A stretch of 64,000 nt of DNA from Macrostomum lignano (Eukaryota): contig NIVC01000038.1 of the NCBI GenBank assembly GCA_002269645.1, positions 1,054,001 to 1,118,000 on the forward strand, read 5' to 3'. The notes beneath the pieces are model-generated. The model did no database searches. It was not told where the DNA came from and saw only the letters and a list, made by a program, of their open reading frames with translations. Below are positions 8,976 to 59,419 of this stretch, piece after piece. Position numbers and translations under genes: made by a program. How positions within the stretch are numbered: the first letter of the stretch is position 1; the number at the start of each line of letters is the position of its first letter.

Positions 8976-10322
8976 AGAGGCGGCGGAGCAGCGGAACCTG
9001 CTCGGTTATTTTGAGAATTTACGAGTGGAGGACAACCTGTTGATGATCGACCTGACTGACGGTCAGCAGTCCCCGAAAATTGTCCTGCCCGAAGCCCTCG
9101 ATGCCCAGGCGATCCAGGAGCTCCACAGTTCGCCACTGTGTGGTCACCTAGGCCAGACAAAAACGCTGAAACGACTGCGAGAACGATTCTGGCGGCCCGG
9201 ATTAGCCCGTGTCACCGAGAATTTTATCAGCAAATGCCGTGCCTGTCTCGAAAGCAAATCGCGAAGGCGAGACAAAGTTCCAGTTCAAAGCTTTCCAGTC
9301 TGCGAAGTACTAGGAAGAGTACATTGCGATTTAGTAGGCCCTATTGCTCAGAAGAGCAAGAGCGGGAACCGCTACATATTGACCTTGTGCGATGCAACGT
9401 CGAAGTACCCGTTCGCCTACCCGATGAGGAACCAGAAAGCCAAGACCATCATCAAGATCCTGCAGGAGCGCCTCATCCCGGATTTCGGTGTACCCTGCTG
9501 GATCCACTCGGACCAAGGCACCAACTTCACTGGATCCGCCTTCAAGAAGTTCTGCAACCTGTTTGGCATTCGACATACTAAAACAACACTGCATCTCCAT
9601 CAGCAACTGCGAGACGAGCACTACTCCAACCTGCCGAAGGCCAAGAAGCTCAAGCCCGGTGATTTGGTTTTCCTCAACAACCAGGTGCTCGAACCGGACG
9701 AGGCGGCGAAGTTTTATCGACCCTGCAAAGCACTCTATGAAGTCATCGAACCGAAAGGCGAGGTGGTCTACAAGATTCGCCGTAGACTGCCCAATCCGCG
9801 AGCCAGACGGGATGAACTTGTTGTTCATCGCCGCAACCTGCTCCACGTTCCTGATGCTGACTACGCGATGATTTCAGATCCCGAAGTCGAGAAGGCGAAG
9901 AAGCACAGACGACAGCCTGATGCTCCCGACGGTGCAGCACCCGCGACCCTGCCAACCGAGGTGCAGCCAGGAGGTGGACCAATCACGACACCAGCGAACC
10001 AGGCAAGTGCACTTCGGCGTGAGCCAGTGCCGTATGGTGAATGCCACCTGCGTGAGCCTGTTTCAAATGCATCTTTGCCTGCTGCTTCTTTTTCGCCCGT
10101 CCATGTCCCTACTCGCCCCGAACCTTTTCCTGCGGTACAGTCTCGTGTAACATCGCCATGCACCACTCCGGTGGAAGCGCCTGTAGGGCCAATAGGATTA
10201 GGTAGGCCAGCTAGGGACCGTAGGCCTCCAGAGAGGCTTCTTATTAGCGACACTAGGCCGCAAACGTACGCTAGTCGCACCGCCCGCATGCGCGCACAAA
10301 ATTTACCCATTTCAGCGCAGAA
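8976..10322 (+). pseudogene. pol: Gypsy integrase (element G1), internally deleted
   Basis: HHCC finger (HSSPLCGHLG...CRAC), VHCDLVGP and HSDQGTNF are present. An in-frame deletion after RHTKTT removes the catalytic Glu. GPY/F-like tail follows. Confidence 0.85.
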
Positions 10323-11448
10323 ATGCACTCATCCCGATGCGCCAAGCGCACTGAGCGCTCAGGATCTAGCGACGACGACCGCTACCGTGAACAGGTGTCA
10401 TACTGCTCGGCGCGGGAAGGCCCCCCGATGCGCGCGGCGGGCCAGTTTGAGCGGCCGGCCGAGCCACAGGCAGTCCGCCGCATTCACCCTCGCCTGCGGC
10501 TGCGACAGCGGCCAGGGTCGCCCTCGCTGACGCGCCAGCGTCGTTCGACACCGCTGGAGAGGGAGCCGCTCGCAGCGTCGCAGCGCCGAGCCTTCCGGCG
10601 ACGCCGAGGCCAGAGGCGCAGACCCCCACCTCCCGTGGAGGTCATTGACTTGACTGGCGACGACTCATCGCCCCGGGTGCGACGGCTCCGGACGCTAGAG
10701 CCCCGCGAAAGGACACATCGTGAGGACAGCGCGGACCCGGAGCCGACGGTCGCTGCCCTGAGACGGACGCTCATCCCTGCCCGCCCAACCGAGCGACAAG
10801 GAGCGGGTCCGGGCCCCAGCAGTGCGCAGGCTGCAGCGGCGACTTTTGGAGCTGTCAGCTCGACGCCTACACCGGGACGCCAGCCCCGGTCTACAACGAC
10901 CCAAATTGGCGGACCAAACTTCGGGCTAGTGCCATCGTCACCCGGCCATGACAGCCCGCCCCGGCTCCTGCCGATCCTGCGGCCTGGTGAGGCCCCCACC
11001 TGTGACGCCGAGGTTCAGACCGAAGAACCGGTCCCAGACACGCCATACACCTACACCTGGGCTGACCTGGCCGAAGAGCTCCGCGGCGCCTTCCCGACGG
11101 TGCCCCTGAACTCACCCGCAGGTCCGGCCAGGGTAGCGTCGGCGAAGGAACTCGGCCCGGAGGACCCGGTAGAGGCCGGCGCGGCCTTCTTGGCGGCACT
11201 CTTCGTCGCCGCGGCTCAACGGGGCGAAGAGCCAAACTTCGCGAAGCCTACTTAGACCCGGCTGCGGTCTCTCTCCGACCAGGACCGGCAGGAGGCGGTC
11301 GACCGCGCTGCCGCCCTCGCGGATGACGCCATCCAGGCTCCGGAGTTCCCGACGACCTTGCGCAGCGTGGCCCGACTCGCCGTTCGGTGTATGTCCGGCC
11401 GTACACCGGTACTGCCCGGGAGGCTAGCCAGGTCCCGGAGCTGTTGAA
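10323..11448 (+). pseudogene. G1 ORF3 (non-env, unknown function), one internal stop at 11253-11255
   Basis: ATG directly after the integrase region with acceptor TTTCAG at 10310-10315. The frame continues past the TAG to 11448. Confidence 0.6.
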
Positions 11449-18822: not shown

Positions 18823-19744
18823 CTGATGAGAACCTGAATCGGAACATTAAGTCTGTGCTGACTGTCTGTTAGAGACAAAGCACAAAGATTGGGCACACTA
18901 TCTGCCAGCTTGCTTAATAGCGCTGCGCACGGCTGTTCACTCAGTGACAGGATACAGCCCGCATTTTCTGATGTTTGGCCGCACATTCAATTTGTCAATT
19001 GAAAACGAATTGCGCCACTCACCTGAGTATCAGAATTTGCCAGATTATGTGCGCCAATTTGAAAGTAGACTGAGTGAGGCGACCGCCCTAGCAAAAGAGC
19101 GAATTCGTGCTCAGCAGGATTTGCGCGTAGATCACTTTGCCGGAAAACCGCAAGTAGATCCGCTGCAGCCAGGACAATTGGTGTTCTTGGCGAATCCAGT
19201 GCTAGAGGCAGGTGAAGCGCCAAAGTTCCATAGACCTCGAAAGGCCGTCTATGAGGTGATCGAGCAGAAGGGCGAGCTGGTCTACAAGATCCGTCGCCAA
19301 AGGCGAGAAGCGCCGTGCTCGAAAGGAGGTGCTTGTAGTGCACCGGAAGAATCTGCTCCCCGTGCCAACTGCCGACTATCTCCCACAGGTCGCAAAAGTA
19401 AAGCACCCGATGCACCGACAGCGTTGTCATACGGCGCCACAGGCTGCTGCCACGCTGAGTTCTGCACCGAGGAGTCCGACGAGGACGGAGACGAGAGCAC
19501 GGTCGACGTGAATTGGGCGCACCAAGCTGCAGCCGCCGCTGCGCTGTGGTCGACGCGCTCGCCGCTGCAAGCGCGATCGCGAGGCGCCAACGCTGAAGTT
19601 GTCGACCAAGGAGCTGAAACGGAGAGAGGAGATTTTGCGCCCATTGAGGTTGCGCAGTTGCCGTCACGCAGCCCAAGCCCACGTGAATCTCCTACTCCCG
19701 CGCTCGCATCTTTCGCCGGAAATGATTACCTTCCAGCGACAGCA

Positions 19745-20627
19745 ATGTCACAAGAAATGCAAGCCACCCAAAGAATTGCTACCCGGCCCAACCCGCCGTC
19801 CGGCACTAAACCTAAAACGGGCTCTGTGGCCGCCCGAGTAGCCGAACTTAAGGAAAATGGTGGTCTGCGCCTAAAGAGCGTAGTCACGAGACCACTCCCT
19901 GAGAGAGTGCCCGAACTTACGTTCGTCGAAGACGTGGTTGATTTACAGGCTCCGAGCTCGCCAGTCGAAGGTAAAAACTCGCCGCCTCGCCTTAACCGGT
20001 TGAGGGCGGCTGAGGAAGTTGATTTCAGGCAGGAGCGACGAGCCGAAGGCTCGCGCCCGAATGCCCTTAGCGCAGCCCATCGGGCGCGTTCGCCGATGGA
20101 AGGGAGCGACCCGCAAGGGCGCCCAATCCGACCGCGGAGACGTGGCAGAAGAGCCGGTCGGTTTCGCGGGAGAATAGCCGCCAGCTGTTCCTCAGCCTTC
20201 GCCCGCAGCCGCTGCTGTGGCTGTCGCCACACACCTTGCTGCAAGGAACGTTCAACCTCCTGGCACTCCCCCAGAGCATGGCCGACGAGCGCCGCTACCT
20301 TCGCGCGCTGACTCCTCCACCACGACTGACGATCTGGCTGCCTGGACGAGGCAACGACAGGCTACGGAAGTTGCTAGCCTGATTCATCTCGCTGGCCTGC
20401 GTGGCCACCTTTTTGGAGGACTACCGCCAGACCTACAGGTAGCTCTCCGAGCTGAGAGTCGCAGCTACAAAGAAAGTCTGTTCCAATGGGCAGCCAGTAT
20501 CGCTGCCCAACGGCTAGCCTCGGAATCGTTCGACCGACACGCGGCTGAGCTAGTAGCTCGCAGACTCGCGGCCGAGCTTGGGCATCTCGATTTGACTCCG
20601 CCGCTGAAAGCCGTCCTGCGGGAGTGA
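19745..20627 (+). pseudogene. G2 ORF3 (non-env, unknown function), frameshifted
   Basis: Acceptor TACCTTCCAG ends at 19736, ATG at 19745. RLKSVV and VVDL motifs; helical C-part in the 20217-20627 frame. Confidence 0.6.
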
Positions 20628-20949
20628 ATGACTAAGCCTTGAACGAAGTTCATTGTTCTTGACGGAACTGTCTAGTGAATCGCTCAAATCCCGAGTCCGC
20701 ATTTGATACTTCATTGTTAATCAGGTTCTAGTACAGGCCAATTGGGCCTCAAGTCAGCATTTTTTTCAGCCAATTAATTCGATCCCAGGAACTTTTCAAA
20801 TTTTATCAATTCACCATGCTTTTCTCTATAGGTTTTACCTTGCGCAGTTAATCAGGTGACCTTCCGGCATTTTACAATCAATATTTTCTTCGCTTTTCTA
20901 CCCTTGACTCAAATACCTATATATAATTCTGCATGCTTGCCAACTAGCT

Positions 20950-38754: not shown

Positions 38755-39630
38755 TGTAGTAGGGGGTTTAGTTCAAGCAGTTTTGCTAAGGGCGTTTGCC
38801 AAGGTTTCCGATTCGTCGAGATAATTATTTTAGTTTTCCGAAATCGAGAATAAGCAGTTTTGCTTTTACGCTACTATTAGTAGTTCACCTTCGGGAAAAT
38901 ATCTGAAGTTATGGGAATTCGAGTATTAGCGGGTTCCTCTATTAGTAAAAGGCTGTTTAGCCTTGGGAAAAGCATCCGTTCGGGACAATCAGTCAAGGAT
39001 CCGTTCAGGACCGTCCATCAGGACAGTGTTTATAGAGACTAAAGATCTCAATTCAAAATAGAAAATAAGGGAGTTTCCTTTCAAGGATTTAATATAGAAA
39101 CTTAAGGAAATTAAGGGTAAGTTAAGGATAAAATTCTAAAAGGGGTAAAATAGGGAGGCTAAGAAGGAGTCTACCACTTAGTCAAAACGGAGTCTACCGA
39201 AGAATAGGAATAAATTAGGTAACATAGGGAAAGACTAAGGGAGTCTACCATTAGTCTAACTAAGAATCGGAGTCTACCGAATTGTTAACATAGGGATTAA
39301 TTGTATACCTTCTTTTGCATATTTGGTTTAATAATATTTCTTTTGTTTGTTTGATCTAAACAATCTTATATGAAATTGACTCTTGTCTCACTTATTTTAA
39401 TTTAACATTAATTATAAGGGGCATTAGTCTGGTGGCAGCGACCTACCAAATAAAAGTACGTAATAGCAGATTAGTAGAGCAAAGTAAACCTAAGATCGTA
39501 ACAACTATTCATCCAATTTAAGGTAGCTAGGAAATCTTCTAGCTTAATCTAAGCCCGGAGTCTCTCGAGCTTAGATTAATCAAATTAAAAATAAACCAGT
39601 AGCCTAAACCGCAGGTACCACGCTTGTCCA
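38755..39630 (+). repeat. 5' LTR
   Basis: About 4 substitutions versus 46873-47748 by eye. Confidence 0.97.
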
Positions 39631-39632
39631 AT

Positions 39633-39642
39633 TGGTGGCAGC
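39633..39642 (+). promoter_or_regulatory. primer binding site, tRNA-Leu type
   Basis: TGGTGGCAGC, 2 nt after the LTR end. Confidence 0.8.
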
Positions 39643-40042
39643 TTAGGGGATTAGTAAACCCGAGAAACGCAAAAAGTTAAGACTGGTGCAAACTAGCAAA
39701 AAATTAGTAAATTAGCTTGCAAATAAAACGTTTCGGAAAGTCAGAATCAGTAGAGAAGGTAATCTAAATACTGAAACTAATGCGATAATCCTAAATCCTA
39801 GGATTAACGAATTAAAGAACGAATTAACGCTTCTATTGAGCTAGCAGTTCAAAAATTGATAGCAAGGTCATAAAATTGACCCAAATAAAGTGAAGAGATC
39901 ACGCAGTCTAGCAGTTCTGTTCACAATTAGAAATAACCAATTAAAAACTAGTTAAATAGATCAGTGACTCAGGAGTCTCCCAGTTTCACTGAATTCAATT
40001 AATAGTAAGTATCAGAAGCGATAATTCGTAATCAGAAATCTA

Positions 40043-41053
40043 ATGGACGCCAACGAAGTAGTAGAAGCTTTGGCTGAAGGCATTAGAGACAGGCTAGACA
40101 TTAGAAAGCACATTAGGATCCAAAAGTACACGCCTAATCAAGATATTGACGTGTGGATTCAGGCTTTTGAGCAAAGGTGTATCGCAGATGAGATACCTGC
40201 AGCCGATTGGAAAAATGAACTACTATCTAATCTAGATGTCCAATCAGCGTTTGCTATTGTGACAAGGCTGAATTTAGACCTTAATCTACCGTATGCTGAA
40301 TTCAAGGATAGGCTCATCGAACGATTCACGCATGCGGGTAGTGCTCAAGAAGCTAGAGAAGAATTCCGTAGCAGATACCAATCTAAGACAGAGAGCTCTG
40401 ACGACTATGCGGAGAAGCTGACAGAGTTAGCCTATAGGGCGTTTCCTCACCTAACTAACGATCAAAGACAGGAAGAAGTGGTGGAACAATTTATTAGAGG
40501 TGTTAGGATAACCCCAGAGGCTAGGGAAAAGCTACTGCTAGCACAGGCGAACACACTCCAAGAGACACGTCGAGTCTTGCGACGTATCGAAATGGCGTAT
40601 ACCATGTCTCGCCGAGGGAGAGATCCAGCTCAGTGCAAGGCAACTGGAGGAGATGAGGCGGAAAGTAGCTTGAGGGAGTTAGTCCGCAAGCAAGGTGAGA
40701 CACTAGAAAGCCAGCAGAGGGTACTCCAGGAGTTGCTTCGACACCAGCAGAGTGCTGAGCAGAAGGCTAGGCAGAAGCCGTACCAAGGCCAGCAACAGGG
40801 CCAAGGTCAGAAGCAGCCAGTAAAGTGCTTCAAGTGTGGGAAAAGCGGTCACATAGCTAAGCATTGCCAGCAGCAGCAGAATCAGCCGCAGTTTCCGCAG
40901 CAGCAGTTTCCACAACCACCACAGTTTATTCCGTACCAGCCGCAGTACCCGCCGCCGCAGTTCCCGCAGCAGCAGTTCCCGCAGCAGTACCAGAATAAGA
41001 ATCAGGGAAACGGAGTAGCCGGAAGCGTAGGAGGCAACGCTTTCCAGAAGTAG
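40043..41053 (+). CDS. gag: Gag, 336 aa
   Basis: Capsid-like region (YQSKTESSDDY...FIRGV) and CCHC knuckle CFKCGKSGHIAKHC. Confidence 0.95.
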   Translation: MDANEVVEALAEGIRDRLDIRKHIRIQKYTPNQDIDVWIQAFEQRCIADEIPAADWKNELLSNLDVQSAFAIVTRLNLDLNLPYAEFKDRLIERFTHAGSAQEAREEFRSRYQSKTESSDDYAEKLTELAYRAFPHLTNDQRQEEVVEQFIRGVRITPEAREKLLLAQANTLQETRRVLRRIEMAYTMSRRGRDPAQCKATGGDEAESSLRELVRKQGETLESQQRVLQELLRHQQSAEQKARQKPYQGQQQGQGQKQPVKCFKCGKSGHIAKHCQQQQNQPQFPQQQFPQPPQFIPYQPQYPPPQFPQQQFPQQYQNKNQGNGVAGSVGGNAFQK

Positions 41054-44000
41054 ACAGCCAGCAGTCTGTAGCCTCGCAACCTGTAAATAGCAGCGATAGT
41101 TTTTCTGTAAATAGTGAATTGAATTCTTTGTATAACAGTAGACATGCGCAACCATTTAATCAATCATTTAATCAACCAAATATTTATTCTCAGCACTTTT
41201 CACACGCACCACAGCAACAACCTTGTTCTAGTAAGCAGCAAATTAAACCACAAAATTTAAGCGAACCAACTAAGAAGCAAAATTACGATCCGTATATTAC
41301 TGGCAGCATTCTAAATAAGGAGGTAGTTTATCTATTAGACACTGGCAGCAATAGGAACATTCTAGGACGTGAAACCTGGAAACACTTGTTCACTGGCAAG
41401 AATAGTCACTTAATTAAACAATGGAACAATAGAATCGTATCGTTCACAGAAGAGCCGATTCCAATTAAAGGTTCCGTAGTTATTAAGGCGACATTCGGTG
41501 ATTTTGAAGAAGAAATAGAGTTTCTCTTATGTGACGCAGAAGTAGACAATGTAATAGGCGTGACGTTTGTCCAACAATATTGTAATGCTATCGACTTTGA
41601 GACAGGAATGCTAACTATGAAGCAGGGAACCAGAATTCCACTTCGTTCTACCAGAGCTAAGCCTCAGGTTAAGAGAATCTATGTTGCAGAAAAGACGACA
41701 GTTCCAGCTAATAGTTCAGGATTAGTCAAGGTTAGATTAGCCACAGGTAGTGAATCCAATTTCGGAGTGCCGTCAGTTGTTGAGCCACTCAGATCAGGAT
41801 TGAAGACTAGAGCAGAGAAGGTAACTGTAGTACCAAGCTTAGTAACTCTAAGGCAAGGAGAAGCGTATCTAGAAGTGATTAACACCAGCTCACAGGAAGC
41901 TAGAGTGCCAGCAGCAGCACTAGTAGGAATGGCTAAGCCACTTTTAGCTAGTGAATTAAACTATCTTAAAGATCAACCAGAGAAAGAGCAGTTATGCCAG
42001 AATAAGAACACGCAGTTTTGCGAAAACATCAGACAGGTTCAAGACAAGTCAGAAGACTGGATTAGTGAGATTAACATAGGAACTGAACTGACTCAGGAGC
42101 AGAGACAGAAAGTGATTGAGGTCGTCAAGGAGCATTCAGCAGCTTTCTCGCAGCACGAGTTAGACTTAGGCAGAACGCATTTAGTCACACATGAGATTAT
42201 CTTGAAGGACAACAACCCAGTTCAGATACCAGCTAGAAAGATTCCACCTCATTGGATCAAGGAGGTAGATGAGCAGTTAGATCTCATGTTGGCTAGAGGC
42301 ATAATTAGGCCTAGTTACTCGCAGTACTCGACTCCATTAGTCATAGTACCTAAGAAAGATGGTTCGCTGAGATTAGTTAACGACTATCGAGCACTAAACA
42401 ACAAATCGGAGTACTTTCCGTATCCAATAACTAATATTAATGAAACATTCTCGTGTCTCCATGGAGCCAGTCAATTTTCTACGTTAGATCTATTCTCAGG
42501 ATATTATCAGATAGCTCTTAGGGAAGAAGATAAATGCAAAACTAGTTTTCCAACTTTACATCGAGGCTCGTTTGAGTACGAAGTTTTGCCAATGGGATTG
42601 CAAGGAGCTCCAGGAACTTTCCAAAGGTGCATGAACTTAGTTCTTAAGGACATTGCACAGAAGTTCGCCATAGCTTACTTAGACGATGTAATAGTTTATA
42701 GTACAGACTTTGAATCTCACTTAGAACACCTGAAAGAAGTGCTCAAAAGACTAATCCAAGCTAATATGAAACTAAAAGCGAAGAAATGTCACCTTTTCAA
42801 ATCAGAACTGCAATATCTAGGACACGTCATAGGCAAATCAGGAATTAAAAGGGATGCGTCAAAGTTAGAAACGATTAGGAACTGGCCAAAACCTAAATCT
42901 GTGACAGAGCTTCGAAGTTTTCTCGGACTCTGTAACTATTATCGAAAGTTTGTTAGAGATTTCGCCGAGGTAGCAGCACCACTCTGTGAGCTAACGAACA
43001 AGAACATCAAGTGTATCCAGGACAATTGGACCAGGATTCATGATGAATGCTTCGAGCTGTTGAAGGAACGGATGTGTTCCGAAGAAGTGCTTGCTTACCC
43101 AGAGTTTAATACGGACCCCCAAGTTTATTTTGTGTTAGACACTGATGCATCAGATGTCAGAATTGGGGCGGTCTTAAATCAAGTACAGAGCGACGGAGTT
43201 GAGAGACCGATCGCGTATTATAGTCGGAAAATGAGGCAGTCAGAAAGTAGATACCCGATTACGAGGAAGGAGCTTCTAGCGATTGTTGACTCGCTGAAGT
43301 ACTTCAGGTTTTACCTCGTAGGGAAACGTTTTAAGGTGCGCACTGATCACAATGCCCTAACCTGGTTGCTTCGCCAGACCGAGCAGACAGGCATTTTAGG
43401 TCGTTGGATCGAGAGACTTAGTGAATTTGATTTTGAGATTGAGCATAGAAGTGGCCCTAAGCATGTGAATGCTGATGCTCTATCCAGGATCCCGGATCCT
43501 CAACAGGATGAGTCATCCCCATTTGCCAGGTCGCTTAGCTGTAGGGCAACTGTGAACACAGACCCAGCATCAGCTGTTACTGTGAGCTCAGGCAATTCCG
43601 CGCAAGCCGAAACCTGTAGTCTGCACAGTGGAGTTACGTCATGCTGTTCGCCGCAGAATATGGCGCCGAACCGACACAATACTCCGAGCTTTAGTAGCAG
43701 GTTGCTAAGCAAAAGGCAAGAACAGGAGCCTAAGGAAAGGCACCCGCTTGTTTGCAATGCACTGCTGAGTGATTACCTTCGTAGCCCTGTGCGTCGCGAA
43801 AATTTGGTCGCAGCTCAGCTAGCCGACCCCGCACTAAGCTATGTCAGGAATCTGATTGAGTCTGACTTGCCGAAACCGAACTTTCAAGAAAGACTAGAAT
43901 TGTCTCACGAGATTAGAAATCTGCTAGGTTATTATGAACTCTTCAGGATAGAAGACGGTGTTCTCCGAATAGACTTAAATTCAGGGCGGACCGAATCTAA

Positions 44001-45450
44001 AGTGGTGTTGCCCAAGTCTTTGGATGGTGAAGTTTTTCACGAATTCCACGATTCACCGTTAGCAGGTCATCTAGGAAGAGATAAAACTTATCAGCGAGTT
44101 AAGGAAAGATTTTGGAGAGTAGGATTAGCTACAGCAGTCGAAAAGTACGTCGCCAAGTGCAAATCTTGTTTAGAAAGTAAATCAAGAAAGCGATGCAAGG
44201 CACCAGTGCAGAATTTTCCTATTGTCGAGCCATTCTCACGCCTTCACATTGATTTGATAGGTCCGATCAGTCAGACTAGCAAATCTGGTAACAAATATGT
44301 CTTGTCAGTTATTGACAGCACTAGCAAATTTCCGTTTGCGTTTGCAATTAAAAATCAGAAGGCTAAGACAGTAATTAAAATTCTGCAGGAGCGAGTTTTC
44401 GCCGACTTTGGAATACCTCAGTGGATTCACACAGATCAGGGAACACAATTTACAGGGAAAGCATTTAGGAAGTTTCTAGACCTCTATGGGATTAGGCACA
44501 CTAGGACAACAAGCTATCATCCACAAAGCAATGGGCTAGTAGAAAATTTAAACAAACAAATTAAGTCAATTATTACCTGTTTGCTCGAGAAAGAACATGC
44601 GAACTGGGATGTTCTTTTGCCCGGTTGTATAACCGCATTGCGCACCAGCACGCATACAGCCACAGGTTTCAGCCCGCATTATCTTGTGTTTGGAAGAGAG
44701 GCCCGGATGCCGAGTGACAATGTGTTCCAGCAGCCAAAGGCGTTCGCCGATCTGCCTGCTTATGTTCAAGAGCACTTGACTCACCTGCAAGAGGGGCAAG
44801 AACTCGCCAAACAGCGGCTCAAATTAATACAACGTAAGCGTGAGCAGCACTATTCTAACAAACCTAAACAACCAGACTTACCTATAGGGAGCTTAGTTTT
44901 CATTAACAACCCAGTCATCACACAGACAGAAGCCAACAAGTTCCACAGGAAGAGAAGAGCAGTCTACGAGGTCATAGAACAGTTATCAGAAGTAGTTTAC
45001 AGGATTAGATTATTAAACAAAAGTACTAAGGCTAGAAAAGAGGAATTAGTCATGCATAGGGATAATTTACTACCCGTACCAACAGCCGATTACGTTAGTG
45101 AGGAAGAAAAGCCAGAAAGCAGTTGTGCCAGGCGACCGAAACTTCGAGAAAATGTACCGCTTAATCCGATGTACGAAGCAGCCGACAGTGAGAGTGAACA
45201 TGAAGATGAAGTGCAGTTTGTGCCAGTGCAAATTCAAAATAATGTTCCAGTGCCAGTGCAGGTTATGCCAGTGCAGGATATACCAGTGCAAGATATGCCA
45301 GTACAAAATAACGAACAGCCAGTAGTCGAAAATAGACCAGTTAGAAATAGACGGGAGCCGAGTAGATTAGCGATAGACCCAGGCCAGAAGAGCTACGTAC
45401 AGAGAGTAAAGGAGTTGTTTAACCCCTATCTACTCTTCCAGCTCGAATAG
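40999..45450 (+). CDS. pol: Pol (PR-RT-RH-IN), intact; frame open from 40999, track start 41119
   Basis: LLDTGS, YLDD, LDTDAS, HDSPLAGH..CKSC, HIDLIGP, HTDQG and NGLVENLN. Confidence 0.97.
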   Translation, partial: ESGKRSSRKRRRQRFPEVDSQQSVASQPVNSSDSFSVNSELNSLYNSRHAQPFNQSFNQPNIYSQHFSHAPQQQPCSSKQQIKPQNLSEPTKKQNYDPYITGSILNKEVVYLLDTGSNRNILGRETWKHLFTGKNSHLIKQWNNRIVSFTEEPIPIKGSVVIKATFGDFEEEIEFLLCDAEVDNVIGVTFVQQYCNAIDFETGMLTMKQGTRIPLRSTRAKPQVKRIYVAEKTTVPANSSGLVKVRLATGSESNFGVPSVVEPLRSGLKTRAEKVTVVPSLVTLRQGEAYLEVINTSSQEARVPAAALVGMAKPLLASELNYLKDQPEKEQLCQNKNTQFCENIRQVQDKSEDWISEINIGTELTQEQRQKVIEVVKEHSAAFSQHELDLGRTHLVTHEIILKDNNPVQIPARKIPPHWIKEVDEQLDLMLARGIIRPSYSQYSTPLVIVPKKDGSLRLVNDYRALNNKSEYFPYPITNINETFSCLHGASQFSTLDLFSGYYQIALREEDKCKTSFPTLHRGSFEYEVLPMGLQGAPGTFQRCMNLVLKDIAQKFAIAYLDDVIVYSTDFESHLEHLKEVLKRLIQANMKLKAKKCHLFKSELQYLGHVIGKSGIKRDASKLETIRNWPKPKSVTELRSFLGLCNYYRKFVRDFAEVAAPLCELTNKNIKCIQDNWTRIHDECFELLKERMCSEEVLAYPEFNTDPQVYFVLDTDASDVRIGAVLNQVQSDGVERPIAYYSRKMRQSESRYPITRKELLAIVDSLKYFRFYLVGKRFKVRTDHNALTWLLRQTEQTGILGRWIERLSEFDFEIEHRSGPKHVNADALSRIPDPQQDESSPFARSLSCRATVNTDPASAVTVSSGNSAQAETCSLHSGVTSCCSPQNMAPNRHNTPSFSSRLLSKRQEQEPKERHPLVCNALLSDYLRSPVRRENLVAAQLADPALSYVRNLIESDLPKPNFQERLELSHEIRNLLGYYELFRIEDGVLRIDLNSGRTESKVVLPKSLDGEVFHEFHDSPLAGHLGRDKTYQRVKERFWRVGLATAVEKYVAKCKSCLESKSRKRCKAPVQNFPIVEPFSRLHIDLIGPISQTSKSGNKYVLSVIDSTSKFPFAFAIKNQKAKTVIKILQERVFADFGIPQWIHTDQGTQFTGKAFRKFLDLYGIRHTRTTSYHPQSNGLVENLNKQIKSIITCLLEKEHANWDVLLPGCITALRTSTHTATGFSPHYLVFGREARMPSDNVFQQPKAFADLPAYVQEHLTHLQEGQELAKQRLKLIQRKREQHYSNKPKQPDLPIGSLVFINNPVITQTEANKFHRKRRAVYEVIEQLSEVVYRIRLLNKSTKARKEELVMHRDNLLPVPTADYVSEEEKPESSCARRPKLRENVPLNPMYEAADSESEHEDEVQFVPVQIQNNVPVPVQVMPVQDIPVQDMPVQNNEQPVVENRPVRNRREPSRLAIDPGQKSYVQRVKELFNPYLLFQLE
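41005..41045 (+). promoter_or_regulatory. -1 ribosomal frameshift signal
   Basis: G GGA AAC heptamer in gag register at 41005-41011, with a downstream GGAAGCGT/ACGCTTTCC stem. Confidence 0.8.
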
Positions 45451-45454
45451 CATT

Positions 45455-46282
45455 ATGGCTGATGCCCCGGAGCGCATTTATCCTATTAAAAAGATTTATT
45501 CCGGAAAAAGGAGACATGATTCAGACGAAAATGAACCCCCGAGAGTGCGCTCAGTAAGGGTGATAGAAACGGCTGACGAGCCCGAGAAACCCCATCCACG
45601 GGAAGAACCGATTACGAAGGAAGAAGAAGGCGAAGGTAGATTAATAATAGATCTGGGAGGCGCAGATCTGGAAGCCAAGACAAGGAAGCAGGAAGAAGAG
45701 AGAAGAGAAGAGCACGATGAGTTTTTACAAATGTTGCTAGACGTTAGTCTGCCCGATATTGAAGAGGCCTTGAGCCCTGCCAATGAGGCACCAGTGGCAG
45801 AGGAACCACCAAGCAATGATGTCCAAGAGCATAAGCCGGCTCCGGTGGCGGATGAGCCTCCCTTGGATGTCGCCGGACTATTTCGAGACGACGTACCACC
45901 GCCGAGCAACCAAGACGCAGCGACCGAACCTTCCGGCGCCAGTCCAAGGAAGTTCCGGAAGTGCACCAAGGCCCTGAAAAGGTGGTTGCTGCAGACCGGC
46001 AACACGGGCCGGTACGATCCGACAGTGCCAGCGGCCTGCACACGATTTCTCGCTAAGGCTACGGCGGCGCAGCGCATCCAGAGCTTAGAGGTGGCCTGCA
46101 CCTATGCGTTGCAGCATGCAGAGGAACGGGTGAAAGGACCAATATCACCGTACCAGGTGAGTGAACATCTACGCGACCTGGCAGAATTATTTGACCCGGA
46201 AGGCAAGAAAACGCCAGCAACCTGCCTGCTTTACCAGTGTGCGCAGAGGGCGCCAACCTGCCGACCCCTAGGGAATCTTTGA
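45455..46282 (+). CDS. ORF3, 275 aa, unknown function, no signal peptide or TM segment
   Basis: Intact ORF starting 4 nt after the pol stop; acceptor TACTCTTCCAG ends at 45441. Confidence 0.8.
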   Translation: MADAPERIYPIKKIYSGKRRHDSDENEPPRVRSVRVIETADEPEKPHPREEPITKEEEGEGRLIIDLGGADLEAKTRKQEEERREEHDEFLQMLLDVSLPDIEEALSPANEAPVAEEPPSNDVQEHKPAPVADEPPLDVAGLFRDDVPPPSNQDAATEPSGASPRKFRKCTKALKRWLLQTGNTGRYDPTVPAACTRFLAKATAAQRIQSLEVACTYALQHAEERVKGPISPYQVSEHLRDLAELFDPEGKKTPATCLLYQCAQRAPTCRPLGNL

Positions 46283-46860
46283 GTTGAAAATTTAATAACC
46301 CAGGGATTAACGCTTCCATTGCTGCTAATTTTTTTTTTTTTTTATTACACAACCACACAGCTTTAACTTTTCTTTTCTATGTTGTCTGCATTTTACACAG
46401 TGCCATAGTGCCATTTTTTTCTTTTCTTTTTCTCAAATTATTGCACCGCTTCTTGGCCTTATATATATCTTTACATATCAATAATATTCAGGAAGGAAAC
46501 CTATATGGTCATTGCCTATTTCATGAATCCCATTATACTCAATGCTCACATAATATTGCTCAACTAATATTGTATGGCTTAATTATTGTTGTTTAATTTT
46601 CCTTAATCATGTACTCGTACTGTTTATTACCTTTGCTGATAGTATGCTATTATTACTACCTATACCATATATTACTAATTAATCATACTATGTTCCATAC
46701 TATGCTATGCTACCATTACTCAGTTATTATTATTGCTTAATCATGCTCATTATATTGCTTATATTTAGTCCATGCATGCCACTACTAATACTGTCTGAAT
46801 TACTTGAAATAAACCCGATATTAACTAAATATGCAAAGGGGTTTGCACATTTTTTTTTTA

Positions 46861-46872
46861 GTGGGGGGTAAG
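46861..46872 (+). promoter_or_regulatory. polypurine tract
   Basis: GTGGGGGGTAAG abutting the 3' LTR, after a T run. Confidence 0.8.
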
Positions 46873-47748
46873 TGTAGTAGGGGGTTTAGTTCAAGCAGTT
46901 TTGCTAAGGGCGTTTGCCAAGGTTTCCGATTCGTCGAGATAATTATTTTAGTTTTCCGAAATCGAGAATAAGCAGTTTTGCTTTTATGCTACTATTAGTA
47001 GTTCACCTTCGGGAAAATATCTGAAGTTATGGGAATTCGAGTATTAGCGGGTTCCTCTATTAGTAAAAGGCTGTTTAGCCTTGGGAAAAGCATCCGTTCG
47101 GGACAATCAGTCAAGGATCCGTTCAGGACCGTCCATCAGGACAGTGTTTATAGAGACTAAAGATCTCAATTCAAAATAGAAAATAAGGGAGTTTCCTTTC
47201 AAGGATTTAATATAGAAACTTAAGGAAATTAAGGGTAAGTTAAGGATAAAATTCTAAAAGGGGTAAAATAGGGAGGCTAAGAAGGAGTCTACCACTTAGT
47301 CAAAACGGAGTCTACCGAAGAATAGGAATAAATTAGGTAACATAGGGAAAGACTAAGGGAGTCTACCATTAGTCTAACTAAGAATCGGAGTCTACCGAAT
47401 TGTTAACATAGGGATTAATTGTATACCTTCTTTTGCATATTTGGTTTAATAATATTTCTTTTGTTTGTTTGATCTAAATAATCTTATATGAAATTGACTC
47501 TTGTCTCACTTATTTTAATTTAACATTAATTATAAGGGGCATTAGTCTGGTGGCAGCGACCTACCAAATAAAAGTACGTAATAGCAGATTAGTAGAGCAA
47601 AGTAAACCTAAGATCGTAACAACTATTCATCCAATTTAAGGTAGCTAGGAAATCTTCTAGCTTAATCTAAGCCCGGAGTCTCTCGAGCTTAGATTAATCA
47701 AATTAAAAATAAACCAGAAGCCTAAACCGCAGGTACCATGCTTGTCCA
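46873..47748 (+). repeat. 3' LTR
   Basis: Near-identical to the 5' LTR. Confidence 0.97.
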
Positions 47749-52638: not shown

Positions 52639-53469
52639 AGCATTGAAATTTCAGTAATTCTCTCTAAGAGTCATTATAGCACTACTACAGCATTATAGCG
52701 ATTCCCTGCAAGCCTCGACATCGTAGGGATTCCCAAATGAATCTCTTAACTTCGACATGAAGCTTCTTTTATTTTTTACATTACGCCTTTTCTATCAGCG
52801 ATCCCTCCCGTGAGGAGCCAACAAATAATGTAATAACTTTTTTCCAATAAACTACATGCAGCTTCTGACATTAGCCTTGACATCTCATTTATTCCCCCGT
52901 GAGCCTTGACATCTCAGCTATAGATAGATAGATAGATAGATTCCCCTCGTAAGCCTTGACATGTCAGCGATGCCCCCATAAACCTTGATATCTGAAAAAT
53001 CCCCTGTTAACCTTGAAACCCGCTAAAATCTAACCCTCAACCCAAACCTGACGTAAACCTAACTTTAACCCAACCTAAAGCCTTGAAATCACAGCAATTC
53101 TTCTTCCCTAAGCCTTGGCATTTAAATGATTCCTTCTTTAAGAATCACAGCACTATAACGATTCCCTCCAAGCTTTGACATCGTAGCAATTCCCAAATGA
53201 ATCTTTTAACTTTGACATGACTTTTATTTTATGTATACATAGTGCTTCTTTTCTTTTTTACATGACTCTTCTTCTATCAGCGCCCCCCCCCGTGGCGAGC
53301 CAACAAAGAATGCAATAAAAAAACTTAAGTAAAGTACATGAACTTGAAGTAGCTTCTGACTTTTGCTTTAACATCTCAGAAACCCCCCTGTAATCTCAGT
53401 TATTCTCTGTGAGCCTTGACGTCTCAGTAATTCTCCCCAACACAGCACTATAGCTTCATTTAATTTTTA

Positions 53470-55255
53470 TATGACACTTCTTTCATGTCTGACATGACGC
53501 TTCTTTTGATTTTTACATGACGATTCTTTTATTCTTCCATGATGCTTCTTAATTTTTTAAATGACACTTTCATTAGTTTTTATATGAGGCTTCTATGATT
53601 TTTTCATGACGCTTCTATGTTAACATGACTCTTCTATGCTTGTTTACATGACGCTTTTATGATTGTTTACATGACGCTTCTATGATTGTTTACATGACGC
53701 TTGTATGATTGTTTACATGACGCTTCTATGATTTTTTACATGACGCTTCTATGATTTTTACATGACGCTTCTATGATTTTTACATGACACTTCTATGATT
53801 TTTTCATGACGCTTCTATGATTTTTACATGACGCTTCTATGATTGTTTACATGACGCTTCTATGATTTTTTATGACGCTTGTATGATTGTTTACATGACG
53901 CTTCTATGATTTTTTATGACGCTTGTATGATTGTTTACATGACGCTTCTATGATTTTTTATGACGCTTGTATGATTGTTTACATGACGCTTCTATGATTG
54001 TTTACATGACGCTTCTATGATTTTTTATGACGCTTTTATGATTGTTTACATGACGCTTCTATGATTGTTTACATGACGCTTCTATGATTGTTTACATGAC
54101 GCTTCTATGATTTTTTATGACGCTTTTGTGATTGTTTACATGACGCTTGTATGATTGTTTACATGACGCTTCTATGATTTTTACATGACGCTTCTATGAT
54201 TTTTACATGACGCTTCTATGATTTTTTACATGACGCTGGTATGATTGTTTACATGACGCTTTTATGATTGTTTACATGACGCTTCTATGATTTTTACATG
54301 ACGCTTCTATGATTTTTACATGACGCTTCTATGATTTTTACATGACGCTTCTATGATTGTTTACATGACGCTTGTATGATTGTTTACATGACGCTTCTAT
54401 GATTTTTTTATGACGCTTTTATGATTTTAACATGACGCTTCTATGATTTTTTTACATGACGCTTCTATGATTGTTTACATGACGCTTGTATGATTGTTTA
54501 CATGACGCTTGTATGATTTTAACATGACGCTTCTATGATTGTTTACATTACGCTTCTATGATTGCTTGCATGACGCTTCTATGATTTTTTATGACGCTTT
54601 TATGATCTTAACATGACGCTTCTATGATTTTTTTACATGACGCTTCTATGATTGTTTACATGACACTTGTATGATTGTTTACATGACGCTTCTATGATTT
54701 TTACATGACGCTTCTATGATTTTTACATGACGCTTCTATGATTTTTTACATGACGCTTGTATGATTGTTTACATGACGCTTTTATGATTGTTTACATGAC
54801 GCTTCTATGATTTTTACATGACGCTTCTATGATTTTTACATGACGCTTCTATGATTTTTACATGACGCTTCTATGATTGTTTACATGACGCTTGTATGAT
54901 TGTTTACATGACGCTTCTATGATTTTTTTATGACGCTTTTATGATTTTTACATGACGCTTCTATGATTTTTTTACATGACGCTTCTATGATTGTTTACAT
55001 GACGCTTGTATGATTGTTTACATGACGCTTGTATGATTTTAACATGACGCTTCTATGATTGTTTACATTACGCTTCTATGATTGCTTGCATGACGCTTCT
55101 ATGATTTTTTATGACGCTTTTATGATTTTAACATGACGCTTTTATGATTTTAACATGACGCTTCTATGATTGTTTACATTACGCTTCTATGATTGCTTGC
55201 ATGACGCTTCTATGATTTTTTACATAACGATTCTATGATTTTTTACATTACGCTT
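53470..55255. repeat. satellite array 1, 21-24-bp unit ATGACGCTTCTATGATT(G/T)TTTAC
   Basis: About 75-80 units, with a 520-bp higher-order duplication. Confidence 0.95.
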
Positions 55256-55316
55256 CCATAATTTTTTTTGTCTTGGCGTTAAAAAGCTTTAATTAAAAAA
55301 AACTCTACTCTCTAAA

Positions 55317-55376
55317 AATTCGAACCATCGTCCCTGCATTTAGCAGTTTAGTCTGTTTACCTCTAGGCTAGCTCTC
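55317..55376 (-). ncRNA. tRNA-derived A/B-box module, copy 1 (decayed)
   Basis: Homologous to 58285-58343; minus strand reads TAGCCTAGAG...CTGCTAA...GGTTCGAAT. Confidence 0.6.
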
Positions 55377-55419
55377 ATAAATTTTAGTCATTACCCCTAA
55401 ATAGAAAATATTCCCAAGA

Positions 55420-55690
55420 CAGCAAGCATCCCCCCAGTAGCAAGCATCCCCTAATACTCCTAGCAAGCATCTACCCAGATAGCAAGCATCTGCAGATAGC
55501 AAGCATCTGCAGATAGCAAGCATCTGCAGATAGCAAGCATCTTGCAGATAGCAAGCATACCCCAAATAATGTAGAAGCATCCTTCCAGATAGCAAGCATC
55601 CCCCAAATAATGTAGAAGCATCCTTCCAGATAGCAAGCATCCTGCACATAGCAAGAATCCCTAAATAGCAAGCATCCCTGGATAGAAATA
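55420..55690. repeat. 17-bp GATAGCAAGCATC(TGCA) array
   Basis: Tandem units; homologous to 58985-59360. Confidence 0.9.
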
Positions 55691-55719
55691 ATCCTATACA
55701 TGTAGCCAAGCTTATCAAG

Positions 55720-58205
55720 CGCAGTAATCCTTGGCTATCGAGTGCAGTAATTCTTGGTTTGCCAAGTGCAGTAAGTAATCCTTGGTTTATTAATAGCAAT
55801 AATCTATGGCTTATCGAGTGCAGTAATCCTTGGTTTATTAATAGCAATAATCCATGGCTTATCGAGTGCAGTAATCCTTGGTTTATTAATAGCAATAATC
55901 CATGGCTTATCGAGTGCAGTAATTCTTGGTTTGCCAAGTGCAGTAAGTAATCCTTGGTTTATTAATAGCGATAATCCATGGCTTATCGAGTGCAGTAATC
56001 CTTGGTTTATTAATAGCAATAATCCTTGGCTTATCGAGTGCAGTAATCCTTGGTTCGGGTTGCATTAATCCTTGGTTTATTAATAGCAATAGTCCTTGGC
56101 TTATCGAGTGCATTAATCCTTGGTTTATTAATAGCAATAGTCCTTGGCTTATCGAGGGCAGTAATCCTTGGTTTATTAATAGCAATAATCCTTGATAAAT
56201 CAAGTGCAGTAATCCTTGGTTTATTAATAGCAATAATCCTTGATAAATCAAGTGCAGTAATCCTTGGTTTATTAATAGCAATAGTCCTTGGCTTATCGAG
56301 TACAGTAATCCTTGGTTTGCCAAGTGCAGTAATCCTTGGTTTATTAATAGCAATAATCCTTGGCTTATCGAGTGCAGTAATCCTTGGTTTATTAATAGCA
56401 ATAATCCTTGGCTTATCGAGTGCAGTAATCCTTGGTTTGCCAAGTGCAGTAATCCTTGGTTTATTAATAGCAATAATCCTTGGCTTATCGAGTGCAGTAA
56501 TCCTTGGTTTATTAATAGCAATAATCCTTGTCTTCTTGAGTGCAGTAATCCTTGGTTTGCCAAGTGCAGTAATCCTTGGTTTATTAATAGCAATAATCCT
56601 TGGCTTATCGAGTGCAGTAATCCTTGGTTTATTAATAGCAATAATCCTTGGCTTACCGAGTGCAGTAATCGTTGGTTTGCCAAGAGCAATAGTCCTTGGT
56701 TTATTGAGTGCAGTAATCCTTGGTTTATTAATAGCAATAATCCTTGGCTTATCGAGTGCAGTAATCCTTGGTTTGCCAAGTGCAGTAATCCTTGGTTTAT
56801 TAATAGCAATAATCCTTGGCTTATCGAGTGCAGTAATCCTTGGTTTATTAATAGCAATAATCCTTGATTAATAAAGTGCATTAATCCTTGGTTTATTAAT
56901 AGCAATAATCCTTGGCTTATCGAGTGCAGTAATCCTTGGTTTATTAATAGCAATAATCCTTGATTAATAAAGTGCATTAATCCTTGGTTTATTAATAGCA
57001 ATAATCCTTGGCTTCTTGAGTGCAGTAATCCTTGGTTTATTAATAGCAATAATCCTTGGCTTATTGAGTGCAGTAATCCTTGGTTTGCCAGGAGCAATAG
57101 TCCTTGGTTTATCGAGTGCAGTAATCCTTGGTTTATTAATAGCAATAATCCTTGATTAATCAAGTGCATTAATCCTTGGTTTATTAATAGCAATAATCCT
57201 TGGCTTATTGAGTGCAGTAATCCTTGGTTTATTAATAGCAATAATCCTTGATAAATCAAGTGCAGTAATCCATGGTTTATTAATAGCAATAATCCTTGAT
57301 AAATCAAGTGCAGTAATCCTTGGTTTATTAATAGCAATAGTCCTTGGCTTATCGAGTGCAGTAATCCTTGGTTTGCCAAGTGCAGTAATCCTTGGTTTAT
57401 TAATAGCAAGAATCCTTGGCTTATCGAGTGCAGTAATCCTTGGTTTGCCAAGTGCAGTAATCCTTGGTTTATTAATAGCAATAATCCTTGGCTTATCGAG
57501 TGCAGTAATCCTTGGTTTATTAATAGCAATAATCCTTAGCTTATTGAGTGCAGTAATCCTTGGTTTGCCAGGAGCAATAGTCCTTGGTTTATCGAGTGCA
57601 GTAATCCTTGGTTTATTAATAGCAATAATCCTTGATTAATCAAGTGCATTAATCCTTGTTTTATCAATAGCAATAATCCTTGTCTTCTTGAGTGCAGTAA
57701 TCCTTGGTTTATTAATAGCAATAATCCTTGGCTTATCGAGTGCAGTAATCGTTGGTTTGCCAAGAGCAATAGTCCTTGGTTTATTAAGTGCAGTAATCCT
57801 TGTTTTATTAATAGCAATAATCCTTGGCTTATCGAGTGCAGTAATCCTTGGTTTGCCAAGTGCAGTAATCCTTGGTTTATTAATAGCAATAATCCTTGGC
57901 TTATCGAGTGCAGTAATCCTTGGTTTATTAATAGCAATAATCCTTGATTAATAAAGTGCATTAATCCTTGGTTTATTAATAGCAATAATCCTTGGCTTAT
58001 TGAGTGCAGTAATCCTTGGTTTGCCAGGAGCAATAGTCCTTGGTTTATCGAGTGCAGTAATCCTTGGTTTATTAATAGCAATAATCCTTGATTAATCAAG
58101 TGCATTAATACTTGGTTTATTAATAGCAATAATCCTTGGCTTATTAAGTGCAGTAATCCTTGGTTTATTAATAGCAATAATCCTTGGCTTATGGAGTGCA
58201 GTAAT
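55720..58205. repeat. satellite array 2, 24-bp subunits (AGTGCAGTAATCCTTGGTTTATTA / ATAGCAATAATCCTTGGCTTATCG)
   Basis: Alternating 24-mers forming 48/72-bp patterns. Confidence 0.95.
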
Positions 58206-58284
58206 CTAAGTGTTTTTATTTAGCTTTTAATAAAAATTTTTACACTACTACTTTTCAGACACTAATCTACTAATCATACACTTA

Positions 58285-58343
58285 GATTCGAACCCAGGTT
58301 GCTGCATTAGCAGTCTGGTCTGTTCAGCTCTAGGCTAGCTCTC
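58285..58343 (-). ncRNA. tRNA-derived A/B-box module, copy 2
   Basis: GAGAGCTAGCCTAGAG...GACTGCTAATGCAG...CTGGGTTCGAATC; acceptor stem not paired. Confidence 0.7.
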
Positions 58344-58984
58344 ATCGAAGTTATCAGTGAATTTGTACCACTTAAATAGTTCAACACTCACACAAAGTCA
58401 GGTAGAGTAAAAAGTCACGAAGCAGTTATGAGTTATGACATAATCAATTTCTTAGGCAAGTCAGTACCAGTCTCTATAAAAGTTAACAATATGGTTACGC
58501 AATATAAATTGAGTACTGTGCTATGCTTTCACACTCAACGCTGTGACGCAATTCAATTGAGTGTCTTGTGTATTGTGATGCAATCTATTTTAGAATCAGA
58601 ATTCAACCAGTCAGTTTTTCTGCTAGCATTCTTACAATGCATTTCAATGCTTGACCTTTGCAAAAAAGCATGTTTTTCGAATATTTAATCCCTTTAACAT
58701 TGAGCAATTTCTTAGCCAAGATGCATGTACCGTCACGGAAAAATTTCTGATCGAACAGTGCAAGTTCGAAGAAAATCGGTCCAGCCATTCAGGAGAAAAT
58801 CGATTTCGTACAAGCAAGCAAGCAAGATTTTCATTTTTAGTATATGGACTAGCAATCTTCGCCCCCCGATGGGGGACATCTGGATAGAACTTCTGTTCTC
58901 TACAAATAAAAAAAACCCGCCAAATAGAGTCTTCACAAAGACAATAGAAAAACTGCTCAAATGAAGCGCAATGCAAAAAGAAAA

Positions 58985-59360
58985 CATCCCAAGACAGCAA
59001 ACATCCCCCTCCTCCCAGATAGCAAGCATCCCCAGATAGCAAGCACCCCCAGATAGCAAGCACCCCCAGATAGCAAGCACCCCCAGATAGTAAGCACCCC
59101 CAGATAGCAAGCACCCCCAGATAGCAAGCACCCCCAGATAGCAAGCACCCCCAGATAGCAAGCACCCCCAGATAGCAAGCACCCCAGATAGCAAGCACCC
59201 CCAGATAGCAAGCACCCCCAGATAGCAAGCACCCCCAGATAGCAAGCACCCCCAGATAGCAAGCATCCCTCAGATAGTAAGCACCCCAGATAGAAAGAAC
59301 CCCCAGATAGCAAGCGTCCAATTGATAGCAAGTATCTATCCTTAAATAGCAAGCATCCAC
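58985..59360. repeat. 17-bp GATAGCAAGCACCCCCA array
   Basis: About 17-20 units. Confidence 0.95.
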
Positions 59361-59419
59361 CAGACAAAAAGTATATAGTGCAACATTTCCTTTTAGCTTT
59401 CTAGGGGCTCCTTTATGAT

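Follow-up and report, generated by a model that had tools for sequence, protein, structure and literature searches.

A conserved non-envelope third open reading frame behind a splice acceptor in Ty3/gypsy retrotransposons of Macrostomum lignano

Structure of the Element and its Neighbors

The DNA considered here (hereafter, the window) is a stretch of 64,000 nucleotides (nt) of the Macrostomum lignano genome (assembly GCA_002269645.1, contig NIVC01000038.1, positions 1,054,001 to 1,118,000 of the forward strand). It harbors G3, a young, intact Ty3/gypsy element at 38755-47748 that encodes gag, pol and a third open reading frame (ORF3) of 275 amino acids (aa). A previous reading made from the sequence alone (the sequence-only reading) had placed such a frame after integrase in three elements of the window; this holds for G3, but the ORF3s of G1 (approximately 9000-13000) and G2 (approximately 13070-20630), which are damaged copies of two other families, are broken. 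ORF3 is carried by five families (G1-G5) of one clade in the M. lignano genome, in which it has intact frames under purifying selection, a conserved acceptor and ATG and no envelope features, is inherited as a cassette, and has been lost together with its acceptor in a multi-copy subfamily. These features support the earlier proposal that the env slot of the clade holds a soluble accessory protein other than Env, preceded by a conserved 3′ splice acceptor, and they show that the protein is selected.

As summarized in Table 1, G3 has the long terminal repeats (LTRs), primer-binding site, polypurine tract, gag and reverse transcriptase (RT)-RNase H-integrase order of Ty3/gypsy elements. Its pol, which terminates in a disordered tail and the pol-end motif of the clade, stops at 45450, and the ATG of ORF3 follows at 45455. 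The branch-like TTTAAC (45418-45423) and the three acceptors that had been listed for the window are all present, TTCCAG ending at 45441, 13 nt 5′ of ATG 45455, in G3, TTTCAG ending at 10315, 7 nt 5′ of ATG 10323, in G1, and TTCCAG ending at 19736, 8 nt 5′ of ATG 19745, in G2. The integrases are diverged, as had been claimed, with pieces 44-72% identical to that of G3.

Table 1. Features of the G3 element and of the G1- and G2-family copies (window coordinates).
Feature	Position	Strand	Remarks
G3 5′ LTR	38755..39630	+	876 bp, TG...CA; 99.5% identity to 3′ LTR; 4-bp target duplication TTCA
G3 primer-binding site	39633..39650	+	Position same in relatives; presumably tRNA-Leu-like
G3 gag	40043..41053	+	Retrotrans_gag (Pfam), CCHC knuckle
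G3 slippery heptamer G GGA AAC	41005..41011	+	pol in -1 frame; putative frameshift
G3 pol open frame, 1483 codons	40999..45450	+	RT, RNase H, integrase (Pfam); protease by eye
G3 branch-like TTTAAC and YTNCAG 3′ splice acceptor	45418..45441	+	Putative use, cis or spliced-leader
G3 ORF3, 275 aa	45455..46282	+	Disordered acidic/basic N-part (basic cluster, SUMO-interacting motif (SIM)-like motif), then conserved domain
G3 ORF3 C-terminal domain, ~100 aa	45938..46246	+	Predicted all-helical; mean predicted local distance difference test (pLDDT) 85.6, predicted template modeling score 0.78
G3 3′ untranslated region (3′UTR)	46283..46859	+	U-rich; inherited jointly with ORF3 allele
G3 AATAAA	46808..46813	+	65 nt 5′ of 3′ LTR, upstream of polypurine tract; conserved clade-wide
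G3 polypurine tract	46860..46872	+	
G3 3′ LTR	46873..47748	+	
G1-family copy: acceptor 10310-10315, ATG 10323, ORF3	10310..11441	+	Premature stop in conserved domain; domain match 11163-11441
G1 copy AATAAA	11956..11961	+	49 nt 5′ of its 3′ LTR (LTR start 12005)
G2-family copy: acceptor 19731-19736, ATG 19745, ORF3	19731..20621	+	Frameshifted; domain match 20334-20621

ORF3 as a Conserved Gene

A search of the M. lignano genome with the G3 ORF3 gave 110 matches, among them many open frames of 33-100% identity, and the aligned copies retain the start, in-frame insertions and deletions, and the conserved C-terminal block down to 34-39% identity. Collection of 40 relatives defined by integrase, regardless of ORF3, added families G4 and G5 together with many ORF3-bearing variants of G1. 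In a tree of RT-RNase H sequences built by a quick method with a midpoint root (59 rows), G1-G5 form one group apart from the nearest database relatives (Shimodaira-Hasegawa-like approximate likelihood ratio support 100, stem 0.9). The ratio of nonsynonymous to synonymous divergence (dN/dS) of ORF3 is 0.07-0.58 in the 16 of 24 pairs for which dS was computable, the remaining 8 being saturated, and the check on selection that had been proposed earlier thus reveals purifying selection and not decay.

ORF3 occurs in three layouts: in G3 it comes after the pol stop, in G2 and G5 it occupies another frame and either overlaps the pol end or lies behind it, and in G1 and G4 it forms an in-frame fusion with Pol (36 of the 79 loci scored for the acceptor below), where open frames reach 2206 codons. 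The description of a separate third frame is therefore correct for G3, but not for intact G1-family copies, in which ORF3 prolongs Pol in frame. A public gene model (P0009) contains the fused Pol-ORF3 and is 91% identical to a copy in the host genome. The proteins are 238-470 aa long and start with MAD/MAE, MH, MS, MT, MD, MK or MQ.

Some distant Pol relatives bear SCAN domains, which may hint at the Gmr1/Osvaldo clade. Distant gypsy Pol relatives from other organisms (P0042, P0059 and P0068) carry the extra Pfam domains PF03539, PF01661 and PF02338. In the part of the source used here, 40 Gmr1/Osvaldo families are listed for M. lignano (PMC12801592).

Properties of the ORF3 Protein

ORF3 consists of a mostly disordered N-part, in which hydrophobic residues make up 17-21%, and a C-terminal domain of approximately 100 aa, in which they make up 30-34%. 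The domain is homologous among G1, G2, G4 and G5. A first profile comparison between families, which used shallow alignments, was not significant; in a deeper comparison, the pairs G1-G2, G1-G4, G1-G5 and G4-G5 beat all 40 shuffles, and no significant link was obtained for G2-G4, for G2-G5 or between G3 and any single family. The G3 domain was aligned in register, though weakly, by a profile built without G3 (E 0.18-0.9). At the N-terminus of the G3-family proteins (window 45455-45560), MADAP-x-R-V/I-Y and an ENxxP motif are conserved, the latter resembling a KEN-box degron.

Short motifs were counted in 30 non-redundant ORF3s by patterns that were picked after inspection of the sequences, the definition of TQT being that in the relevant part of PMC7861614. 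Basic clusters occur in 18 of the 30 (shuffles: mean 4.1, maximum 10) and SIM-like motifs in 16 (shuffles: mean 1.1, maximum 5). The LC8-type TQT motif occurs in 11 of 14 G1-family ORF3s (shuffle mean 0.4) and in none of 14 from G3, G2 and G4, and G5 has only a TQS-like sequence. On the basis of these sequence features, the protein is probably nuclear.

The features of an envelope protein are largely absent. The best 19-residue hydropathy score is 0.19-0.65 in G3-family ORF3s, in agreement, for this family, with the claim that signal peptides and membrane helices are lacking; 6 of 50 distinct ORF3s from other families score 1.62-1.70. No Pfam family, viral fusion families included, was matched above the cut-off. 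The hallmarks of FAST- or sORF2-like fusogens (60-210 aa, a single membrane helix and an N-myristoylation motif) are not found in ORF3, which, as judged from its sequence, is neither Env nor a FAST-like fusogen.

The AlphaFold model of the G3 domain is confident and has five helices (pLDDT 85.6), and Foldseek found no match to it at E ≤ 0.001 in the PDB or viral libraries; its best VIA match (Z 6.4, root-mean-square deviation 4.6, 107 residues aligned) lies within the range expected for common helical bundles. The model of the G2 domain is of low confidence (pLDDT 61), and as predictions the two models show neither a new nor a known fold. A histone fold was suggested by a language-model search, all leads of which (0.80-0.84) belonged to the histone-fold clan, but it was not confirmed by the monomer models; a second atlas query gave no usable match.

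Relatives were sought in collections other than the DNA downstream of Pol relatives from outside Macrostomum. No homologue of the G3 ORF3 outside the host was present among 1115 candidates, and a five-family profile matched only the fused P0009 among 8000. A profile search of 1.84 billion sequences returned eight matches, mostly short stretches of repeat proteins (WD40, FN3 and Ig-like), which were judged to be noise. Viral and metagenome contigs contained no match to ORF3, none of 10 ORF3s was present in an exact-sequence collection, and sequence searches of the PDB gave nothing at E < 0.09. The sequence-only reading had named a match to a known env or accessory family as evidence that would count against it, and no such match was found in Pfam or the PDB searches.

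The Splice Acceptor Before ORF3

Among 100 loci examined, 79 could be scored, that is, they had the pol-end motif, any YAG and an ATG. All 79 have YTNCAG 7-30 nt 5′ of the ATG, in 48 distinct contexts from the five families (TTCCAG 30, TTGCAG 22, TTTCAG 19, TTACAG 6 and CTACAG 2), whereas only 6-14 of 147 windows taken in 27-nt steps along pol contain the hexamer. The loci are not independent draws because the copies are related; the conservation nevertheless exceeds chance, and the genome-wide check that had been suggested is thereby borne out. The variation is confined to positions at which a splice consensus is tolerant (N = C, G, A or T; C or T at -6), and the hexamer lies in phase 0 of pol in 28 loci, in phase 2 in 50 and in phase 1 in one. 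The gap between acceptor and ATG is exactly 7 nt in 35 loci, as is typical of families G1 and G4. Of the 21 unscored loci, four show the acceptor all the same (L068, L126, L128 and L143), seven belong to a subfamily without ORF3, and the rest are partial or damaged.

A donor is less evident. The three donor-like sites that had been proposed in the G3 leader (39615, 39759 and 40005) exist, but 39615 and 40005 are not preserved in the sister subfamily, in which 39759 retains only AG/GT followed by a poor consensus. GTRAG occurs in the LTR, leader or early gag of each family at approximately the number expected by chance and in unrelated places, and in G4 the 700 nt that precede the gag motif do not contain it. 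A candidate donor CCN/GTRAG in the gag of G1 is kept among G1 copies, but it has no counterpart elsewhere and would yield an out-of-frame gag peptide, and it was rejected. Cis-splicing from the leader donors that had been named is thus unsupported by conservation, since no donor is conserved across the clade.

In the parts of PMC8629364 cited here, M. lignano is reported to trans-splice 30% of its genes, the top trans-acceptor motif is [T/C]TNCAG, and trans-splicing is said to require an acceptor that no donor matches. The published 35-nt spliced leader has 43 exact copies in the genome (control, 0). The ORF3 acceptor fits the spliced-leader motif YTNCAG, which is not exclusive to trans-acceptors. 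The same hexamer is also compatible with ordinary cis acceptors. Very probably, given its sequence conservation, the acceptor is used; because YTNCAG also fits ordinary acceptors, use by spliced-leader trans-splicing appears to be roughly an even chance and use by cis-splicing slightly less than that.

Processed genomic copies that start at the junction were not found among 59, 45 and 17 DNA matches. Three copies cut 60-72 nt 5′ of the ATG were considered as possible subgenomic starts and rejected, since for two of them the pol end that is missing was located on the same contig, at a distance of 5-9 kb.

A Swappable Cassette and its 3′ Signals

ORF3 and its 3′UTR are exchanged between elements as a unit. 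Two elements with 100% identical integrases (dS 0.027; L064 and L069) have ORF3s of 61% identity, and two others (L073 and L081) show 94-100% identity in each 300-nt bin beyond the cassette but only 36-65% over ORF3 and the 3′UTR, the left border being the ATG. Over 51 pairs, ORF3 and the 3′UTR always co-segregate (14 pairs with at least 89% identity in ORF3 and at least 93% in the UTR; 37 with at most 76% and at most 67%), whereas LTR and integrase assort freely. Because ORF3 alleles with saturated dS are found on backbones with integrase dS of 0.03-0.08, old alleles must have been kept and reshuffled onto current backbones. A protein paired with a cis-element, or balancing selection, would explain this behavior, and long-term balancing selection, which the alleles suggest, is a hallmark of conflict between element and host or among elements.

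Of the 54 elements whose LTR start was located, 51 have an AATAAA 35-80 nt 5′ of the 3′ LTR and upstream of the polypurine tract (36 of 38 distinct sequences; 28 other elements have no located start). Neither AATAAA nor ATTAAA is present between the 5′ end and the primer site in eight of eight G1/G2 elements. RNA ended at the upstream signal would presumably be without the repeat needed for reverse transcription, and therefore the genomic RNA would have to bypass both the acceptor and this AATAAA. In each family unrelated sequence between AATAAA and the LTR could form a hairpin (window 46808-46872; L083, L097, L130 and L150), which would pair with the polypurine tract in G1, G2 and G5.

A natural control for the function of ORF3 is a subfamily of G1 in which seven of seven loci (L127, L136, L138, L146, L147, L167 and L172) have no ORF3; the pol end is followed by approximately 530 nt and then the LTR, and the 3′UTR and AATAAA are retained. 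In one copy (L127) both the acceptor hexamer and the ATG are gone; because the acceptor is lost alongside ORF3, it tracks ORF3. Pol frames of 1626-1754 codons are still found in three of the seven. ORF3 is thus not needed in cis, in keeping with a factor that is provided in trans.

Other Elements in the Window

Besides the ORF3 frameshift, the G2 copy has a deletion 5′ of its acceptor. Its integrase is split by a DNA transposon at 15453-18824 with terminal inverted repeats, hAT-like by eye, the minus strand of which carries a transposase-like gene (15944-16939 and 16997-18145). Downstream of G2 lies a solo LTR of the G5 family (21268-22180; compare L175, 1536-2376). In G5 LTRs, a clear TATA box precedes several acceptor-like TTTCAG sites that have no donor before them, and judging from this arrangement the 5′ end of G5 genomic RNA could itself be trans-spliced. 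A solo LTR related to that of G3 (7977-8960) includes tandem repeats containing GGAGTCTACC, and GGAGTCT recurs in the LTRs and leaders of several families. Inside the LTRs of the clade, 100-200 nt before their 3′ end, a primer-site-like TGGTGGCAGC is found (window 39430-39447 and 47548-47565; L083-L097 and L173-L182), and the leaders of the G1 family contain the full primer site in two or three copies, approximately 78 nt apart. Long tandem arrays of 23- and 24-nt units at 53450-61000 are the source of spurious repetitive ORFs.

Possible Role of ORF3

In the model that we favor, the LTR transcript would be processed by default, at the acceptor and at the AATAAA before the polypurine tract, so that the mRNA for ORF3 is made first. 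ORF3 would be translated from this processed subgenomic RNA, opened at the YTNCAG acceptor, and the protein, predicted to be soluble, would enter the nucleus and act in trans. There it may divert the RNA of the element from processing and thus allow survival and export of the full-length genomic RNA, as do CERV of the Cer1 element and retroviral Rev, possibly by way of a matching element in its own 3′UTR. A role in the fate or export of RNA, rather than in chromatin or particles, is a tentative assignment that falls somewhat short of an even chance, and the same degree of caution applies to RNA processing, localization and function taken together, all of which we infer.

Several observations weigh against this model. 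Neither an RNA-binding domain nor an export signal was identified in ORF3, and the SIM-like and TQT motifs point equally to chromatin complexes. The tie between the G3 domain and those of the remaining four families is weak (hhalign score 17.3, with 1 of 100 shuffles as high). G3-family 3′UTRs fold no better than shuffles (z of the best window, -0.3 to -0.7 in seven of eight sequences and -2.4 in one), and therefore a structure like the Rev response element is not evident. The linkage of ORF3 to its 3′UTR also follows from a lack of homology between alleles, and because the subfamily without ORF3 keeps AATAAA, this signal is a general feature of the clade and not specific to ORF3 mRNA. Assembled contigs of four runs, the RNA nature of which was guessed for three, speak neither for nor against the junction: of the joints listed, 11 in number, none extends to 45442, and one contig (X9) is unspliced across 45246-45480, but the runs guessed to be RNA also cover the flank, and such contigs are of uncertain kind and prone to lose rare forms.

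ORF3 may instead help at the level of chromatin, as an anti-silencing factor or transactivator that is made from the same processed mRNA and acts through the SUMO-interacting and LC8-binding motifs to counter or mimic the co-transcriptional silencing of the host, with many old alleles kept by an arms race with the small-RNA silencing of the host; this we regard as rather unlikely, albeit with points of its own in the frequency of SIM-like and TQT motifs and in the saturated alleles on young backbones. TQT in disordered regions of the fly silencing factor Panoramix binds LC8/Cut-up, according to the part of PMC7861614 used here. However, TQT is confined to G1-family proteins, no DNA-binding fold was recognized, and the ORF3 alleles are unlinked to LTR type, contrary to the expectation for an activator that binds a cognate LTR. 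In a broader reading, the retrotransposon would be run as an operon, and spliced-leader trans-splicing by the host would release a downstream accessory cistron from its genomic transcript; this cistron would be an ancient, swappable cassette (protein and 3′UTR) with diverse alleles and would code for a new regulator or anti-silencing factor of the nucleus that bears a new helical domain besides SUMO- and LC8-binding motifs. This reading appears less probable still. The in-frame fusions to Pol, together with gene model P0009 and the identity of LC8 as a dynein light chain, would suit a domain associated with the particle or integrase, which as the Pol C-terminus or as a separate, packaged protein might help to carry the particle or the pre-integration complex, or might serve in target-site tethering. 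This role seems improbable, because ORF3 lies outside the pol frame in three of the five families, the fused families maintain a gap of exactly 7 nt between acceptor and ATG, as one would expect of a free protein, and the subfamily without ORF3 has spread.

If YTNCAG were unused, ORF3 might be expressed by termination-reinitiation after pol, from an internal promoter, or only as a Pol fusion. The want of a donor conserved clade-wide, above all in G4, and the position of the G3 ATG within a few bases of the pol stop are in line with such expression, and internal env promoters are known in some Oikopleura Tor elements (PMC4402516, as far as cited here). This is very unlikely, for the hexamer varies only as a splice consensus permits, does so in two codon phases and decays where ORF3 is lost, and even RNA made from an internal promoter, with a short outron, would make use of the acceptor. 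Least probable of all, and largely refuted, is a degenerate envelope or FAST-like fusogen: ORF3 does occupy the env position and is exchanged between elements like env genes, but signal peptides and membrane helices are lacking in the G3 family, Pfam gave no match, and proteins of this length that are mostly disordered, have no N-myristoylation start and are under purifying selection do not resemble a decaying env. With these alternatives weighed, diversion of element RNA by a trans-acting nuclear ORF3 remains the reading we prefer.

Comparison with Known Systems

LTR retrotransposons of animals are usually gag-pol with or without env, and regulators of the type found in complex retroviruses are known in very few (CERV and sORF1). 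If the ORF3 mRNA is indeed trans-spliced at the internal acceptor, the 3′ gene would be expressed by a route that differs from the cis-splicing of env. Because the host is a regeneration model with transgenesis, ORF3 is testable. Rev and Rex of complex retroviruses are small trans-acting proteins with basic clusters that are made from processed RNAs. ORF3 is like them in its basic clusters and in the possible pairing of protein and cis-element, but no sequence link to them is apparent, and no structured response element was found in the G3 3′UTRs.

Published systems are compared below as described in the cited parts of their sources. Like env of errantiviruses and retroviruses and of the Oikopleura Tor elements (PMC4402516), ORF3 lies after pol with an acceptor just upstream; unlike these, it has no membrane features and no conserved leader donor, and an AATAAA stands upstream of the polypurine tract. 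ORF3 resembles the sORF1 and sORF2 of the Drosophila MDG1 group in being an accessory frame of LTR elements that lack env, and of the two sORF1 is nuclear, with an internal poly(A) site of its own; the MDG1 frames, however, are 70-110 aa long, mostly 5′ of gag and unspliced, and sORF2 is a transmembrane fusogen (bioRxiv 10.1101/2025.03.14.642691). The ORF3s of LTR elements in bdelloid rotifers are likewise family-specific third frames after pol that are not Env, but these are captured enzymes (GDSL lipase and DEDDy exonuclease) or membrane proteins (PMC5408684), whereas the ORF3 considered here matches no family.

In the literature searched, which did not extend to the 2020 classification paper or to the Repbase and GyDB annotations, no account was found of this ORF3 family, its three layouts, the allele-swapping cassette or the poly(A) signal before the polypurine tract; the main text of PMC12801592 has 0 matches for 'ORF' and 'splic'. 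The impression that ORF3 had not been described therefore holds, within these searches, for the protein family but not for its kind, of which the rotifer ORF3s (PMC5408684) and CERV are earlier instances. CERV, a nuclear protein other than Env, is produced by a spliced mRNA from the env-slot ORF of Cer1, a Gypsy/Ty3 element of Caenorhabditis elegans (PMC10309623; PMC3315495); it is needed for export of the genomic RNA (PMC10309623), and its mRNA is also SL1 trans-spliced (PMC3315495). Both proteins are thus encoded in the env position of a Ty3/gypsy element. As compared by description only, CERV has five exons, approximately 517 aa, N-terminal peptides in common with Gag, and G-protein-like and Cys-loop domains, whereas in ORF3 a single acceptor is closely followed by an ATG of its own, most of the protein is disordered and there is one helical domain of approximately 100 aa, and the alleles are swappable. 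Because the closest case is CERV of Cer1, the kind of protein is known and the protein family is new, and ORF3 would represent an independent case in which a new protein family is carried across a whole clade of young elements.

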